The notes under the pieces were generated by a model. That model had not been told where the DNA came from. It was given only the letters and a program-made list of their open reading frames with translations, and made no database searches. Both the position numbers and the translations under genes were made by a program. Positions 34,894 through 40,739 of a stretch of 64,000 nucleotides of DNA are shown here, piece by piece. Source of the DNA: an uncultured Bacteroidales bacterium (GTDB taxonomy: Bacteria > Bacteroidota > Bacteroidia > Bacteroidales > WCHB1-69); NCBI GenBank assembly GCA_900317715.1, contig ONHS01000003.1:7954-71953 (forward strand), written 5' to 3'. Numbering within the stretch: position 1 is the first letter of the stretch; the number at the start of each line of letters is the position of its first letter.

Positions 34894-36645
34894 CTACTTT
34901 ACCAGCACCACCCATTCGTAATAATTCATTTCCCAAACGCTATCGGAGGCCATCCGTTTCAATTCCAACTTGTTGAAACAGACCAACAAACTGTCGGTGC
35001 GATAAATCAGCAACTCGTCCTCATGATCCTTTATCCAAGACCTCGAAGGCGACACGTCCGGACAACCAATCCTTTGTAACTGCTCCCGGAAAATCTGATT
35101 TGCCGAAATAGTCCGGCCGTTTCCAATCGACAGTTGTTCATCCGCATTGGCTGGGTTTGGTGTCCCGTACATCTGGCGGTAGCCACTCACATCCACAGGC
35201 CCGTAAGTCTTGCGCGATAAATAAACACTTGGGACTATTTCCTCGATTACAACTTCTTCCTCTAACTGTTCGCGGGCTAATTCTTCCGACCATGCAGAAG
35301 CATATTTGGAGGTTTTTTCCGACAACGATGCCAGATAGTCAGACTTCCGGGCGATACCGAACTCGCTCTTCAAGAGCACCGTGTCGTTCCTGTTGTCCAA
35401 ATAGTTGAGCGACTGATATAGTTTCCGATGTTCCACCATACGCAAGGTGTCGGCAGGATCAGGGGTAGGCAACCGCAAGGTGCCGTCGTCGTTCAGGCGG
35501 TCGAGTTGCTCGGCCATGGTGCGCACGCGCTGGATTTGTGCCCGTTGCGCGATCTTCTCGCCACGGAGACTCGGCACCAGCACCGTCAGCAACACGACGG
35601 CCAACGATCCCGCTGCCAACGCGAAATAGCCACGGCGGTTGCGGAACAGGAACACCAGCACGCACGCCGTCATCAACGCTCCGACCAACAGCAAATAATA
35701 GCGCGACTCGGTCAGACCGTAGTCCGCCAAACGACGGGCAACCCCTGTCCAGAAGAGTGCCAGCAGCGGCAAGACGAACAGACTGAAATGGTCATAGAAC
35801 CACTTGAAGGGTCGCGGTTCCGTCAGTATCTGCAACATCTTGGCCAACAAGAAAATCACGAAGAAAACCGTCACCATGATAGCGACCCCGCCCTTCGGCA
35901 AGTTCCAGGTGAAAAGGATTTTGGCGGCATAGACATAGAGTACCACCGTGTAAATCAGCAATGCCGGTGTCAGCACCCAATTCAGCAGAACGGCCCAGAA
36001 ACGGCGGATCTCGATGGTTTCGGGACGGTCCTCCATCGCGAAGAAGAGCACGGGTGCTAATCCGCAGAACAACAGCAACGCCGTTTGTTCGTACCAGCCA
36101 TCCCAGACTTTGTGAGGAATTTCGAAAAGCGACTTGATCGTATAAGCGATGGCGGCATACAGCAGATAGAGGATTCCCGCGACGAGCAACGCCCGCACCG
36201 CCGACCAGACCATTTGCACGTTACGCTGCACAAACGGTTCGTTTTCGGTGAGCCGATGCCGCACGCACAACCACAGCGGAAGCGCCGCCAGCACGGCAAT
36301 CCAATAGGCGATTTCCTCCACCCAGTCGAGGAGGAACGGCATGGCGAACCCGGCCACCATCCCCGCGAGCGGCAGCATGTAGAGCAGCAGACACCCGATG
36401 CCGCGTTTGCGCAACGGTTGCAGCGAATAGGCCGCCACCACCATAAACGGCGCCAGTGACATCGGTCGGAACCACCACGGCGCAGGTTCGTTTTTCACAT
36501 CAAATATGTCCGGATGGGAACTTCCATAACATCCAGCCACGCAGACATATAGCAGGATGACAATCTCCACGGGATGCGCCTTCACGGCATCCCACACAGC
36601 CGCCAGTCCCCGTTGGATTTTCTCTTTTAACGTTATCTTTTCCAT
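34894..36645 (-). CDS. Large polytopic membrane protein with a C-terminal soluble domain (possibly DUF4153 family)
   Basis: ATG start. About 10-12 TM segments over 380 aa, then a ~200-aa hydrophilic domain. GC-rich. The family assignment is from memory only. Confidence 0.65.
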   Translation of the reverse strand: MEKITLKEKIQRGLAAVWDAVKAHPVEIVILLYVCVAGCYGSSHPDIFDVKNEPAPWWFRPMSLAPFMVVAAYSLQPLRKRGIGCLLLYMLPLAGMVAGFAMPFLLDWVEEIAYWIAVLAALPLWLCVRHRLTENEPFVQRNVQMVWSAVRALLVAGILYLLYAAIAYTIKSLFEIPHKVWDGWYEQTALLLFCGLAPVLFFAMEDRPETIEIRRFWAVLLNWVLTPALLIYTVVLYVYAAKILFTWNLPKGGVAIMVTVFFVIFLLAKMLQILTEPRPFKWFYDHFSLFVLPLLALFWTGVARRLADYGLTESRYYLLLVGALMTACVLVFLFRNRRGYFALAAGSLAVVLLTVLVPSLRGEKIAQRAQIQRVRTMAEQLDRLNDDGTLRLPTPDPADTLRMVEHRKLYQSLNYLDNRNDTVLLKSEFGIARKSDYLASLSEKTSKYASAWSEELAREQLEEEVVIEEIVPSVYLSRKTYGPVDVSGYRQMYGTPNPANADEQLSIGNGRTISANQIFREQLQRIGCPDVSPSRSWIKDHEDELLIYRTDSLLVCFNKLELKRMASDSVWEMNYYEWVVLVK

Positions 36646-36671
36646 ATTTAATTGATTTTCATTTCTTTCTG

Positions 36672-36679
36672 CAAAAATA
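36672..36679 (-). promoter_or_regulatory. -7 promoter box TATTTTTG (minus strand)
   Basis: Exact TAnnTTTG 27 nt upstream of ATG 36645. Confidence 0.45.
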
Positions 36680-36690
36680 AGAATTATCCG

Positions 36691-37515
36691 CTACCACGGC
36701 TTGTGCCGTTTCAAAAAATCCTCTTTCTCCTCTTGGCTGAACGTCTGCGGCCCGATAGCACCACCGCCATATTGGAAAGTGCAATGGTCGTTATAGGGAA
36801 TCAGATCCAGATTCTCCATAGCAGTGGATTTCTCCTCGTCCGTCATAGATCGACTGTTGATAATATAATCATACCTTCCCATTCCCACTCGGCGAAACCA
36901 GATTTTCACCAAATCGGGGGTGGTTTGAGAATATTCTATGCCGACACAACCCATCTTCTTAAGTCGCTGGCGGATGCCGTCGTATTCCTCCTGGGTCAGC
37001 CCCACCACGCACATCAACGAATCCCTTTTTTCACGCGCCTCTTCGTTCCAAAAGTTTGAATAGTGGTGTTCGTTGCCCTCTCCTGCGCACACATGGAACA
37101 TCTCCAGCCTATTCCCCTTGAATTCCAAGGTGACAGCACAACTGTCGGCAACAGCACTTTGAAGATAGCGGTGCAACTCTTCCATTTCGGTATGGTGCTT
37201 CTCATAATGCTTGGTCATGATGTCGGGATTGCATCGCCGCTCGGGTGCCACTGCAAGGACATAAACGATCACCAACAGCACATTAAGTCCTCCCCATATC
37301 ACCGCAAGCCGTTGCCAAATATTTCGCCAACGCAACCCCATAATGAAAAACACTATCGACAAGCCAATCGCCAGCGGCGGGATCCAACTGAAGATTAAAG
37401 AAATTACAAAGCCGAGAAAGTCATCCACCCGAAACAGCACGATGACTGCGGTGACGACGGCGAACGGAATCAGCTTCAATATCCCGAAAATGGTTGCTTC
37501 TGTTTGCTCTTTCAT
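36691..37515 (-). CDS. Hypothetical membrane protein (3 N-terminal TM segments plus a ~170-aa cytoplasmic domain)
   Basis: The track start at 37536 is GTG. ATG 37515 gives MKEQTEATIFGILKL... No recognisable domain. Confidence 0.6.
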   Translation of the reverse strand: MKEQTEATIFGILKLIPFAVVTAVIVLFRVDDFLGFVISLIFSWIPPLAIGLSIVFFIMGLRWRNIWQRLAVIWGGLNVLLVIVYVLAVAPERRCNPDIMTKHYEKHHTEMEELHRYLQSAVADSCAVTLEFKGNRLEMFHVCAGEGNEHHYSNFWNEEAREKRDSLMCVVGLTQEEYDGIRQRLKKMGCVGIEYSQTTPDLVKIWFRRVGMGRYDYIINSRSMTDEEKSTAMENLDLIPYNDHCTFQYGGGAIGPQTFSQEEKEDFLKRHKPW

Positions 37516-37529
37516 AATACTGTATATTA

Positions 37530-37706
37530 CTACCACCCACTAATTTGCATACTTATATTTACCCATTCCAAAATGATTATTACGCAAATCGCCATCGTCA
37601 ACACCAACAATAACGCAATCTTCCATCTTTTCTGTGCAATCGCGAACACACTCACTACCGGCGCCACCCACCAATATTTCAACATCAAATTGGATATCTC
37701 GTTCAT
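37530..37706 (-). CDS. Candidate small membrane protein (58 aa, two hydrophobic segments)
   Basis: Hand-translated: MNEISNLMLKYWWVAPVVSVFAIAQKRWKIALLLVLTMAICVIIILEWVNISMQISGW. ATG at 37706, TAG at 37530-37532. It is below the track's size cutoff. Confidence 0.3.
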   Translation of the reverse strand: MNEISNLMLKYWWVAPVVSVFAIAQKRWKIALLLVLTMAICVIIILEWVNISMQISGW

Positions 37707-37785
37707 TTCTGTTGTTATTATTTTGATTTTTGGTGATAAACCATTTCAGTAGGCGGCGTTTCCTGTGTCGCTAAACATTTTTTTT

Positions 37786-37804
37786 GCAACGTTGGAAACG
37801 TCGC
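37786..37804. repeat. REP-like hairpin GCAACGTT-GGAA-ACGTCGC, related to the GCGACG...CGTCGC family
   Basis: Read directly. Flanked by T8 on the + strand. Lies 32 nt after the creD stop. Confidence 0.6.
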
Positions 37805-37835
37805 CTACTACCTACATTAACCAACAGTCGAACAC

Positions 37836-39197
37836 TCACTCCTTGTACCATTTCACCTTCAGCGACACGAACATCAGCACCGCCAAAATCACAAAGATGC
37901 CGAGGCTGCCGAAGAGCAGGGCGTAGGTCTCCATCTGGAGCAACACATACATGAAGACGTAGAGCAGAAGAAGCAGGGCACCCACCATCAGCGCGGTTTT
38001 GCGGATTTTCAGGATGCCCGCCAAGTAGCCCGTGATCAGCACGATGGTCATCAGCATGGCGATGAGATACGACCAAAGGAAGGGGATGTGCTCGCTGAAC
38101 GAGAGCAACAGCGTGTAGAACACCAGCAACGCGGCACCGATGAGCAGATACTGTACCGGGTGGATGGGCGTCTGCCGACGGTACTCCACGAAAAAGACCG
38201 TGGCGAAGGTGAGGAAAATGAACAGGTAGGCGTACTTCACCGTGCGCGTGGTCTGCTGGTACTGTAACACCGGTACCCTCATCATCACCCCGAACTCGTT
38301 CTTCTTCATGCTTACGCTGTGCGAGCCCCCGTCGCCGTACACCCATTGGGTCACCGACTGCCCGAAGTCGCGGTTGAGGGCCAGCACCTTCCACGTCGAG
38401 GTGAACCCACTGTCCGACACGGTCCGCTCGTTCGGCAGGAAGTTGCCCTGGAAGCTCGGCGTGGCACAGTTGGAGGTCAGTTGCACGGAGGTGCTGTTGC
38501 CCACCGGCAGGAACATCAGCGACTCCGAGCCCTTCAGCGACAACTGCACAGAGTAGGTCGCAGATACCGAATCTTGCATCTCTCTCACAGGCACACGGCA
38601 GCACAACACTGACCCCAACTCCTCGTCTTTGTCGGATCTCATCGTATATTCATTTCCGTTCAGCCGCAACACCACATTCTCCGACAGCCCCCGGAAGTCG
38701 CTCAACGAAATCAGCACCTCCGCCTTCGAGATGTCATAGACGGAATCCACATATTCCGACAGATTTGGCAGTTGTAGACTGCCGTCCAATGTCAGATCCG
38801 CGGTATAGACGGTCACATCGAAGTTGCCGCGATGCCGTTTCTCCGTCTTCACATCGCCCTTCACCTGCAAGGATTCAGGCAGAAGATATACATCCTTATG
38901 GTAGTTTTTACTGGGGATACGCACCACCGGTCCGATTACCCGCTGCGGCGCACTCCACATCTGCTCCACATCTTTCTCGGCCTCCACCTGGGTCGCGTTC
39001 CGCTCATTCACCACGTGCAGGATGATTTGCTGCGGAATAAGCAGAATAAGGCTGATAAGCCCGATGAGGAGGAGCTTCAGCAGCATACGGTCGCTGCGCT
39101 TCATTCTTGATTTTTCCTGCGTGGCAGGTCTTGTTTGTTCTGCTTGCGGTGTCGTCACCGCGGTTGTCGTTTCTGTTGTTTTTGTTTCTGTTGTCAT
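37836..39197 (-). CDS. creD: CreD-like cell-envelope integrity inner-membrane protein
   Basis: ATG start. T/E-rich N-terminal extension, one TM, a large periplasmic domain, then 5 C-terminal TM segments, which is the CreD family layout. Motifs LLKLLLIGLISLILLIP and SFSEHIPF. Confidence 0.78.
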   Translation of the reverse strand: MTTETKTTETTTAVTTPQAEQTRPATQEKSRMKRSDRMLLKLLLIGLISLILLIPQQIILHVVNERNATQVEAEKDVEQMWSAPQRVIGPVVRIPSKNYHKDVYLLPESLQVKGDVKTEKRHRGNFDVTVYTADLTLDGSLQLPNLSEYVDSVYDISKAEVLISLSDFRGLSENVVLRLNGNEYTMRSDKDEELGSVLCCRVPVREMQDSVSATYSVQLSLKGSESLMFLPVGNSTSVQLTSNCATPSFQGNFLPNERTVSDSGFTSTWKVLALNRDFGQSVTQWVYGDGGSHSVSMKKNEFGVMMRVPVLQYQQTTRTVKYAYLFIFLTFATVFFVEYRRQTPIHPVQYLLIGAALLVFYTLLLSFSEHIPFLWSYLIAMLMTIVLITGYLAGILKIRKTALMVGALLLLLYVFMYVLLQMETYALLFGSLGIFVILAVLMFVSLKVKWYKE

Positions 39198-39240
39198 ATT
39201 TTTGGATTTTTGGTGAATAATATCGAATGTACGTTCATTG

Positions 39241-39400
39241 TATCATCATATCCTCGTCATTCGACCCAGGGTTGCGGCCAGAGGCCTTACCCTGGGCTAC
39301 CGAGCTCTTGCCCCTACGGGGCTACTCAAGGAAGTAGTTTAATATATGTGGGAGCTTTTCGGCATAAACTGCTAACTTCTAACTACTAACTGCCAACTAT
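39241..39400 (-). repeat. Structured intergenic repeat, copy C (inverse orientation, co-oriented with creD)
   Basis: The reverse complement aligns with copies A and B. Stem-loops GCCCC-gta-GGGGC and CCCAGGG-n18-CCCTGGG, the latter shifted and compensated relative to A/B. Confidence 0.8.
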
Positions 39401-39409
39401 CAAAAAGTA

Positions 39410-39424
39410 CTTTGCGCTACAAAG
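39410..39424. promoter_or_regulatory. Operator-like motif CTTTGCGCTACAAAG, within the conserved 22-mer AAAAGTACTTTGCGCnnCAAAG
   Basis: Second copy of the motif at 40517-40531. Lies just after the regulator stop and upstream of copy C and creD. Confidence 0.45.
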
Positions 39425-39442
39425 TTTTATACCAAAAAAATT

Positions 39443-39745
39443 TTACTCTCCCCGGCACCCCTGCAAAAAACGCTCCAGCGCGGCGATGTGCGCGGCGAAG
39501 GCTTCCCTGCCCGACTCTGTAATCACGTACGTCGTGTTCGGCTTGCGACCGATGAACGACTTCTCACAGCGGATGTAGCCCGCTTCCTCAAGATGACGGG
39601 TATGGCTGGCCAAGTTGCCGTCGGTGAGCTCCAACAGCGACTTCAGCGTGGCAAAATCCGCCGAACCATTCGCCGCCAACACCGACATGATGCCCAACCG
39701 GATCTTGTTCTCGAAAGCCTTATTCAAACCATCAATAATCGCCAT
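39443..39745 (-). CDS. Small winged-helix transcriptional regulator (ArsR/MarR-like, 100 aa)
   Basis: ATG start. HTH region FATLKSLLELTDGNLASHTRHLEEAGYI, then a wing RKPNTTYVITESG. Confidence 0.8.
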   Translation of the reverse strand: MAIIDGLNKAFENKIRLGIMSVLAANGSADFATLKSLLELTDGNLASHTRHLEEAGYIRCEKSFIGRKPNTTYVITESGREAFAAHIAALERFLQGCRGE

Positions 39746-39812
39746 ATCATTATTTATTTACATTGTACCATTACACAACAGTCTTACTAACTTATCCTTA
39801 TCACTCCTGATT

Positions 39813-39862
39813 CACAAGTTTCAGATTTCAAGTTTCAGGTTTCAAGTCACAAGTCACAAGTC
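39813..39862. repeat. Degenerate heptamer array (CACAAGT / TTCAAGT / TTCAGGT)
   Basis: Read directly. The minus strand has TGA at 7-nt spacing immediately after the stop at 39863. Confidence 0.88.
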
Positions 39863-40504
39863 TTACTTCTTCCGTTCAAACATCAAAACATAGGCAATCC
39901 CAAACACAACATGCATCACACTAAACCCCAAGAACCAGAACAGCAAAGCATGTGACATGGTAAAGCAGTCGATGATGCCAATGAGGAGCTCCGCATAGCC
40001 GAGGTAGCGCAAGATAGGATAAGTATAGTGACTGCAATTAACGAGCGCAAGACCGTAAAACAAAAGCATAATGGAAGAGGTTAATCCGTAATGTCCTTGC
40101 ATCACTAATGCCATGCTTAACAACCCACCAGCGGCCAATGGAATAAAGAAATCTAGAAGCATCTGCATCATACGCTTATCAAAAACAAAACGCAAATGGT
40201 GACGCCTGGACTTCGCAATGGCAAAAACGAACATGGTGAGCAGACAAATCGCAAACAATGCGATAGCAATGAGAGCGGCAATGCGAATCTTGCTCGGCGT
40301 GTCTAAAACGGCATATCGTTGCAGGTTTTCGAAGCATGGGAGCGCATCCGATACACCGATTACCGCCGCCGCCATCCAGGAAGCCACGCCTGCAAGCAAC
40401 CCGATAATAACGATTGACCAACCGCTAATCGCCTGAAAACGAGACGACTTACTCATCATCTCACGAATATCATCCAATGTCTGTTTAACCTCTTTTTCTT
40501 CCAT
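39863..40504 (-). CDS. Hypothetical polytopic membrane protein (213 aa)
   Basis: ATG start and about 6 TM segments. First gene of the putative membrane-protein/wHTH/creD transcription unit. Confidence 0.65.
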   Translation of the reverse strand: MEEKEVKQTLDDIREMMSKSSRFQAISGWSIVIIGLLAGVASWMAAAVIGVSDALPCFENLQRYAVLDTPSKIRIAALIAIALFAICLLTMFVFAIAKSRRHHLRFVFDKRMMQMLLDFFIPLAAGGLLSMALVMQGHYGLTSSIMLLFYGLALVNCSHYTYPILRYLGYAELLIGIIDCFTMSHALLFWFLGFSVMHVVFGIAYVLMFERKK

Positions 40505-40516
40505 ATCTTAAAAGTA

Positions 40517-40531
40517 CTTTGCGCCGCAAAG
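40517..40531. promoter_or_regulatory. Perfect 15-bp palindrome CTTTGCG-C-CGCAAAG overlapping the -7 box; a candidate operator
   Basis: Read directly. Lies between the -7 box (40527-40534) and ATG 40504. Confidence 0.5.
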
Positions 40532-40534
40532 ATA
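40527..40534 (-). promoter_or_regulatory. -7 promoter box TATCTTTG (minus strand)
   Basis: Exact TAnnTTTG preceded by an A8/T8 run. Lies 23 nt upstream of ATG 40504. Confidence 0.55.
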
Positions 40535-40675: not shown

Positions 40676-40707
40676 AAAAAAAAGCGACCGATTCGAAAAC
40701 CGGTCGC
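40676..40707 (-). terminator. Rho-independent terminator ending the rpoBC-DUF3467 transcription unit
   Basis: Minus strand: GCGACCG-gttttcgaat-CGGTCGC followed by T8. Lies 33 nt after the stop at 40740. Confidence 0.8.
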
Positions 40708-40739
40708 CACAAAATTTATAAAAAAGTTGAACGTAGTCG

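Follow-up and report, generated by a model that had tools for sequence, protein, structure and literature searches.

The CreD protein of Escherichia coli, Pseudomonas, and Stenotrophomonas resides in the inner membrane, and its expression reports the activity of the CreBC system (PMC4689548, PMC5402928). A full-length CreD orthologue is encoded by an uncultured Bacteroidales bacterium in the 64,000-nucleotide (nt) stretch of DNA analysed here (GenBank assembly GCA_900317715.1, contig ONHS01000003.1, positions 7,954 to 71,953), which as a whole is referred to below as the window. Its gene, creD (37836–39197, minus strand), lies behind two genes of the same orientation, mem213 (39863–40504, minus strand), coding for a membrane protein of 213 amino acids (aa), and the gene of a small winged helix-turn-helix (wHTH) regulator (39443–39745, minus strand). 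Together, mem213, wHTH, and creD have the appearance of a so far undescribed switch that acts on inner-membrane proteins. To our knowledge, CreD is a common read-out of envelope signalling without a known activity. Full-text literature searches returned nothing on the mem213–wHTH unit, on HTH_34, the family of the regulator, or on the function of DUF4153, the family of another product of the same block, and the papers found on CreD concern Proteobacteria only.

Among known regulatory systems the nearest in logic appears to be SdpR/SdpI, followed by the LytTR regulatory systems and BlaI/BlaR1. In work by Ellermeier et al. in 2006, the ArsR-type autorepressor SdpR of Bacillus subtilis is reported to be retained at the membrane by SdpI, a polytopic immunity/signal protein. 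The likeness consists in a small sensorless winged-helix repressor and a polytopic membrane protein of ca. 200 aa encoded in one operon, in the presence in this operon of the repressor's own site (here a predicted one, operator 1, lying on the −7 box, in 124 of 128 pairs), and in the control of repressor availability by the membrane protein, as proposed here. The present locus differs in that the regulator belongs to HTH_34, the membrane protein gene comes first, there is no toxin gene, and a second operator serves a changeable cargo. In the streptococcal LytTR systems (HdrRM, BrsRM) an autoregulated operon of two genes codes for a regulator and for the membrane inhibitor that is cognate to it; a DNA-binding protein with a dedicated small polytopic membrane gate and autoregulation through promoter repeats would be common to both. 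However, the regulators of those systems have the LytTR fold and act as activators on direct repeats, whereas here a winged-helix protein goes with an inverted repeat, and repression rather than activation is predicted because this repeat overlaps the −7 box. BlaI/BlaR1 and MecI/MecR1 are resembled in the winged-helix dimeric repressor (predicted here), the palindromes at two promoters, and the co-transcribed membrane signal protein, but mem213, unlike BlaR1 and MecR1, has neither an M56 protease nor a sensor ectodomain (it has no Pfam match, and HExxH is absent by inspection).

The output, a full-length CreD orthologue, is shared with the CreBC–CreD system, from which the locus differs by its local pair of a wHTH and a membrane protein, its palindromic operator, and the lack of a cre-tag and of two-component genes in the block. 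An earlier note on this DNA had tied creD to a dedicated small wHTH regulator and not to CreBC, and the conserved palindrome on the regulator and creD promoters bears this out; its statement that no CreBC is encoded there holds for the block, which contains no two-component genes (no genome-wide search for creBC was made). The cre-tag, TTCAC-N6-TTCAC, is absent 5′ of creD at up to one mismatch and has three matches in the window vs. 6.2 expected; with no cre-tag near creD, CreBC-type control of this gene was rejected.

The mem213–wHTH pair and its operator

The window proteins were compared with 20 loci of the same genus and of four other families of the order. In 19 of these, mem213, wHTH, and CreD stand next to one another, even where the identity drops to 34–37% for CreD and 27–33% for mem213; the exception, L023, is a 6.3-kb contig with a truncated creD alone. 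The other three genes of the block, coding for products of 58 aa and 274 aa and for a DUF4153 protein, join the trio in the closest kin only, so that the six genes, presented in the earlier note as one module, are not conserved as such: beyond the closest kin only mem213–wHTH–CreD persist. In an unbiased sample of the phylum, 301 Bacteroidota genomes each at least 90% complete, CreD is present in 76 genomes and DUF4153 in 67, and mem213 is a single-copy gene in 103. Adjacency was counted with profiles that had been refined by iteration on the retrieved loci; all 51 loci holding either mem213 or wHTH held both, side by side.

Named genomes scanned with the wHTH alignment gave matches in at least 597 species, with carriers in Bacteroides, Butyricimonas, Tannerella, Paludibacter, Prevotellaceae, Flavobacterium, Maribacter, and Tenacibaculum, as well as in Pontibacter, Adhaeribacter, Pedobacter, Mucilaginibacter, Lewinellaceae, Saprospiraceae, and Ignavibacteria. 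Bacteroides intestinalis, Butyricimonas synergistica, and isolates of Flavobacterium and Pedobacter are among the carriers. Eighty of these loci were kept for neighbourhood counts; mem213 lies 5′ of wHTH in 77, and the remaining three end at a contig edge. A set of 128 pairs, taken from Bacteroidales, Flavobacteriales, Cytophagales, Sphingobacteriales, Chitinophagales, and Ignavibacteria, is uniform in this respect: mem213 always precedes wHTH in the same orientation, and the spacer, counted from the stop of mem213 to the start of wHTH, has a median length of 2 nt. It is 117 nt long in the window (39746–39862), where heptamer arrays and hairpin repeats are inserted in it. Gaps of 500–1400 nt between mem213 and wHTH were seen in seven loci of Flavobacterium (L120, L130, L136, L137, L143, L172, and L173) and one of Pontibacter (L122), suggesting that the operon of the pair includes one or more additional genes there.

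The consensus of the operator is ACTTTG-N5-CAAAGTACTTT, which can also be written ACTTTG-N5-CAAAGT(ACTTT). Its core, CTTTG-N5-CAAAG, occurs twice in the window (40517–40531 and 39410–39424) vs. 0.10 expected, and the palindrome followed by NNCTTT is found in just these two places of the whole genome; the reversed control gave none. Promoters were searched for with the TAnnTTTG box, a sigma-70 scan being uninformative for Bacteroidota. Operator 1 (40511–40534, minus strand; CTTTGCGGCGCAAAG followed by TACTTT) is superimposed on a Bacteroidota-type −7 box, TATCTTTG (40527–40534), of the mem213 promoter; its 15-bp palindrome stops 12 nt and its TACTTT tail 6 nt before the mem213 ATG. Operator 2 (39404–39425, minus strand; ACTTTGTAGCGCAAAG followed by TACTTT) lies between wHTH and creD, beginning 18 nt past the wHTH stop and 212 nt ahead of the creD ATG. 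The latter distance results from heptamer arrays and hairpin repeats inserted in the creD leader (39198–39403); in most other genomes operator 2 is within about 20–60 nt of the ATG (judged by eye, untallied).

Of the 128 pairs, 124 retain site 1 and 108 retain site 2, with unvarying half-sites and a variable 5-nt spacer. The end of the site 1 palindrome is most often 7–13 nt before the ATG, and its left half-site coincides with the −7 box, which reads TAnnTTTG in 58 and TTACTTTG in 55 of the 124 cases; site 2 usually starts 16–25 nt past the regulator stop. From this conservation and position we infer that the wHTH protein binds the palindrome, as a predicted protein site. Since the site coincides with the −7 box and the region of the start, the most likely effect of the protein is repression, both of its own operon and of the promoter of the cargo. 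We hold this part of the explanation, the operator and its regulon, to be highly probable. The constant element thus appears to be the pair with its operator, because the cargo varies while the pair stays, with CreD and DUF4153 as its two commonest outputs.

The regulator is a 100-aa protein that matches HTH_34 (PF13601) over the full length of the model (positions 1–80 of 80; E 2.4e-31, 108.1 bits vs. the cut-off of 27) and is proposed to be an autorepressor. Its recognition-helix motif is TDGNLA(S/T)H, with an invariant TDGNLA core, and His48, His86, and Glu91 are nearly invariant in a 24-sequence alignment. The best match in the Protein Data Bank (PDB), and the closest solved structure, is PH1061 of Pyrococcus horikoshii (1UB9; E 1.8e-10, residues 12–96), which is likewise 100 aa long; it is an archaeal protein without a known function, membrane partner, or operator. 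The one-component control put forward in the earlier note is doubtful, as the regulator has no sensor domain and its gene is always directly 3′ of a membrane protein gene.

mem213 has no family match in Pfam or NCBIfam, which is true also of the 58-aa and 274-aa products. Its AlphaFold2 (AF2) model, with a predicted local distance difference test (pLDDT) score of 86.3, consists of an N-terminal helix (residues 3–23) and six transmembrane (TM) helices; by the positive-inside rule the N-terminus, the basic loop 97–112, and the C-terminus are cytoplasmic. Conservation is highest in the N-terminal helix (0.61) and TM4–6 (0.60–0.69) and lowest in periplasmic loop 1 (0.16), which is only 19 aa long. 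This distribution speaks against a periplasmic ligand site, loop 1 being the least conserved part, and for an intramembrane mode of sensing with a contact surface on the cytoplasmic side. The family comprises 2,395 clusters at 50% identity (E up to 0.001). In the family alignment His198 (in TM6), Tyr150, and Trp190 are invariant. A PDB sequence search with mem213 gave no match. DUF308/HdeD-like (PF03729) matches, all sub-threshold, were obtained for 13 of 29 family members (best E 0.0038) and not for the window protein. The SdpI model (PF13630) is absent from the matches of the window mem213 at E up to 10 and from those listed for the other members of the family (29 in total; the best 25 of 48 families listed), and a six-frame search of the genome itself with SdpI at E up to 10 gave three matches, none at the mem213 locus. 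For want of a PF13630 match, membership of mem213 in the SdpI family was rejected.

Cargo genes and the remainder of the block

The same-strand genes behind site 2 were clustered in 131 loci, and representatives of the recurring clusters were scanned for families. CreD is the main cargo, with 101 loci, followed by a protein of ca. 100 aa with three TM helices and no family (20 loci), DUF1361 (19), a Coq4-like HDxxH protein (17; sub-threshold), DUF4153 (11, in two clusters), DUF2809 (9), a 414-aa polytopic protein without a family (8), a DgkA-type kinase (5), and DUF805, MpaB/Lcp-like, and DoxX-like proteins (3 each, the last sub-threshold). creD lies 3′ of the pair in 58 of the 80 named loci and follows it in 31 of 73 creD loci of the phylum sample, in addition to the window genome. 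DUF4153 comes after 17 of the sampled pairs and that of the window genome, the typical order being mem213, wHTH, operator 2, and DUF4153; in one genome DUF4153 adjoins the pair, and creD, 15 kb off, is yet preceded by a perfect operator of its own. Four of the six block genes, those of mem213, wHTH, CreD, and DUF4153, thus appear by their neighbourhoods to belong to a recurrent system. We know of no characterised member of DUF4153, DUF1361, or DUF2809.

The window CreD matches PF06123 almost end to end (model positions 2–428 of 428, E 2.3e-129) and passes NCBIfam NF008712 with 423.1 bits vs. the cut-off of 275. Its AF2 model (pLDDT 86.6), with helices at 34–80, beta-strands at 85–305, and five helices at 311–447, predicts an N-terminal TM helix, a periplasmic beta-sandwich, and a C-terminal bundle of five TM helices. 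The top Foldseek matches were pentameric ligand-gated channels (GLIC, GluCl, and GABA-A; E about 1e-4, probability up to 0.9), and beta domains of M1-aminopeptidases were also returned. Homology to either group was rejected, the TM-scores being 0.11–0.26 and the rmsd 9–25 Å for both, and the likeness was put down to a shared architecture of a beta-sandwich and a helical bundle. A PDB sequence search with CreD gave one chance-level match (E 0.17). Several relatives (L020, L021 at G022:C14:23282-24521, G159, G150, and G290) have a creD that is truncated or interrupted by a frameshift or stop, and these copies could be real pseudogenes or assembly errors. Three loci of genus g77 (L096, L097, and L098) code for proteins of ca. 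410–445 aa that match the C-terminal TM part of CreD alone (E 1.5e-17), their N-terminal domain being another one (weak DUF4139); the operator is found 5′ of them, perfect in L098 and with one mismatch in L096 and L097, and the pair is located elsewhere in the genome.

The six co-oriented minus-strand open reading frames (ORFs) described in the earlier note were all found, and its description of long antisense and alternative-frame ORFs in the block is likewise accurate (e.g., 35428–36060 on the plus strand and 37771–38604 on the minus strand). The last gene of the block (34894–36645, minus strand) codes for a polytopic protein with DUF4153 (PF13687) at residues 67–389 (E 2e-18, 67.1 bits vs. 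the cut-off of 27) and a 194-aa C-terminal domain without a known family. HTH_34, CreD, and DUF4153 are each single-copy in the genome (3.14 Mb in 138 contigs). Counting DUF4153 as a member of the module, as the earlier note did, is right insofar as it is a recurrent partner of the pair in other genomes, but the window copy has no operator and has a −7 box of its own, a perfect TATTTTTG (36672–36679, minus strand) whose last base is 26 nt before the ATG; it is probably transcribed from this predicted promoter. No operator precedes pep58, p274, or DUF4153 in the window, even at two mismatches.

The 58-aa ORF, pep58 (37530–37706, minus strand), taken in the earlier note for a candidate peptide gene, is real, but it is a deletion allele, shortened in frame by 46 codons, of a gene for a 104-aa membrane protein, and does not belong to the conserved part of the unit. 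The 104-aa protein is kept in four sister species (L014:8157-8471, L015:7855-8169, L018:7960-8274, and L019:7969-8283); the flanks of the deletion are 95–100% identical, and the break falls between two short repeats ending in VF (VVSVF / FATFVF). The next gene, p274 (36691–37515, minus strand), codes for a 274-aa protein with about three TM helices and a soluble domain of ca. 175 aa. The 104-aa protein, p274, and the 194-aa C-terminal domain of the DUF4153 protein gave only chance-level sub-threshold Pfam matches. The p274 family is narrow (76 clusters, none with a functional name, the few labelled members being metagenome-assembled genomes of Bacteroidales) and appears to be a lineage-specific family of rumen Bacteroidales. 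Its homologues of 43–60% identity adjoin genes for a TM1586-type nitroreductase or DUF4419, and no CreD, wHTH, or DUF4153 gene was called within ca. 5–7 kb on either side of them. Both pep58 and p274 are passengers. In distant p274 homologues, a 41-aa ORF overlaps the start of the gene by 4 nt (L179:4819-4944 and L180:6397-6522); a small ORF precedes p274 in the window too, and there may be a small-peptide/p274 pair.

The sister species sharing the rpoC context differ in this part of the block: L017 has neither p274 nor DUF4153, L014 lacks DUF4153, and L016 (11081–12553) and L020 have a 460–490-aa B12-binding radical-SAM gene (PF04055 and PF02310) between p274 and DUF4153. A gene of this kind was also seen 3′ of creD in a third relative, L013. 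L015, L018, and L019 have an extra gene for a 120-aa lipoprotein-like product after creD. In the window the 129-nt spacer between creD and pep58 (37707–37835) contains a long imperfect hairpin (37747–37810, minus strand) and folds at −39.3 kcal/mol (z −5.05; 0 of 200 shuffles as good); it is possibly a transcript boundary or a copy of a local hairpin-repeat family.

The block is flanked upstream by rpoC and a DUF3467 gene and downstream by an NrnA-like DHH gene and three FKBP genes. A terminator-like hairpin (40683–40708, minus strand), with a stem of 11 pairs (6 of them G-C) followed by TTTTTTT, lies 3′ of the DUF3467 gene at the upstream boundary. The G+C content of the block, 50.9% vs. 47.8% for the window, ranks ninth among 117 segments of equal size, so it is GC-rich, as had been claimed, but not in all its genes: the excess is carried only by wHTH (57%), CreD (55.5%), and DUF4153 (54.6%), and mem213 (45.8%) and the 58-aa ORF (40.7%) are below average. 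PADLOC defence models gave no match for five of the six proteins and, for the regulator, a generic wHTH match to Csa3 (E 9.2e-05); with nothing beyond this match, an anti-phage defence function was rejected.

Proposed mechanism and rival explanations

According to the mechanism proposed here, mem213 and the HTH_34 protein would be made from one operon with a short leader, the locus being one copy of a Bacteroidota-wide unit. The regulator would bind the palindrome as a dimer and repress the promoter of the pair and that of the cargo. Since it has no sensor domain, its signal input would be supplied by mem213, which upon a change in the state of the membrane would hold or release the repressor via its conserved cytoplasmic N-terminal helix and loops. 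The output would be more CreD and, elsewhere, more DUF4153, DUF1361, DUF2809, DgkA, or Coq4-like protein. As the outputs are all inner-membrane proteins, the unit probably serves membrane or envelope upkeep; the envelope-stress role suggested for the block in the earlier note is an inference. A mem213-gated HTH_34 repressor of the pair and of a variable inner-membrane cargo is, as a whole explanation, rather probable, with the role of mem213 as the sensor partner evenly balanced between yes and no. A more tentative proposal, to which we give somewhat less than even credence, is that of a new class of two-protein signal pathway in Bacteroidota, in which a six-helix bilayer sensor of very low extramembrane mass gates a sensorless repressor of an exchangeable set of inner-membrane proteins behind one invariant operator, and CreD and DUF4153 are the chief outputs, partly interchangeable.

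Several observations weigh against this explanation. mem213 has no match to SdpI or to a known sensor fold (best E 0.41 in a PDB fold search), and it could be one more regulated membrane protein and not a sensor. In the window, site 2 has a weak −7 box (AAACTTTG) and is 212 nt from the creD ATG. Finally, CreD does not appear to be bound to mem213–wHTH control, because 43 of the 94 analysed creD loci of the phylum sample have no pair within 4.5 kb, most of them having no operator either.

The main rival as regards the regulator is that it is itself the receptor of a small ligand or a metal, as ArsR/SmtB repressors are, with mem213 as the first regulated effector, such as an exporter, and not as a signalling partner. 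Many local repressors adjoin the transporter they control, and the near-invariance of His48, His86, and Glu91 would suit such a function, as would a weak match to the ArsR/SmtB model NF033788 (E 2.4e-5). The match, however, scores 24 bits, far under the cut-off of 55, and the 24-sequence alignment contains no conserved cysteine and no alpha-3 or alpha-5 (D/H-x-H...H-x2-E) metal motif. Moreover, no transporters of metals or drugs are among the cargo families, mem213 matches no transporter fold, and the pair is fixed while all other regulated genes vary, which makes direct sensing unlikely. A still closer parallel to SdpRI, in which mem213 would be an immunity protein signalling the presence of a peptide toxin, takes its appeal from the combination of a small autorepressor and a polytopic membrane protein in one autoregulated operon, as in the published system; but no toxin-like gene is kept beside the pair, the gene order is reversed, the SdpI model misses mem213 at E up to 10, the cargo is made up of membrane proteins of a housekeeping type, and PADLOC is empty save for the generic Csa3 wHTH match, so that a true toxin–immunity unit has next to no probability.

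The extent of the unit and the nature of the palindrome can also be read otherwise. All six genes would make up a single envelope module, conserved and transcribed together under the wHTH regulator, if their common orientation, their close spacing, the lack of a −7 box between creD and pep58, and the recurrence of the same set, partial or reordered, in close kin and one other rumen lineage (L015, L018, L019, and L109) were decisive. Such a module is improbable in view of its dissolution beyond the closest kin, where only the first three genes stay together, the unrelated contexts of p274 homologues, the gene losses in L017 and L014 and the radical-SAM insertion in L016 and L020, the strong hairpin after creD, and the −7 box of DUF4153, which is not accompanied by an operator. 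As for the palindrome, a terminator scan flags site 1, with its 6-pair stem followed by a T-rich stretch, the site 1 region folds with a z of −2.3, and there is an overlap of the left half-site with the TTTG of the −7 box, all of which would be expected of an RNA element (a terminator or leader hairpin) or of a plain promoter motif. Yet the folding of site 2 equals that of shuffled sequences (z −0.05), and the arms are invariant and the centre, or loop, variable, which is the reverse of a structural RNA and points to a protein site rather than an RNA stem. The right half-site and the TACTTT tail lie outside the known promoter consensus, and the motif, of which a genome has one or a few copies, occurs only beside the regulator gene or before its cargo; an RNA or promoter element is therefore very improbable, and binding by the regulator is the reading kept here.

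Implications for Bacteroidota

The comparison places uncharacterised membrane genes of gut Bacteroides, rumen Bacteroidales, and environmental Flavobacteria under a shared regulator, operator, and obligatory membrane partner, and so delimits a regulon that can be perturbed. Membership of this regulon can be predicted from the palindrome in any Bacteroidota genome, and mem213 provides a candidate sensor family of about 2,400 clusters without a Pfam model. A testable idea is that the unit mediates a response of Bacteroidota to membrane damage alongside extracytoplasmic function (ECF) sigma factors. If the proposed mechanism is true, the operator would be a direct experimental handle on what CreD does.

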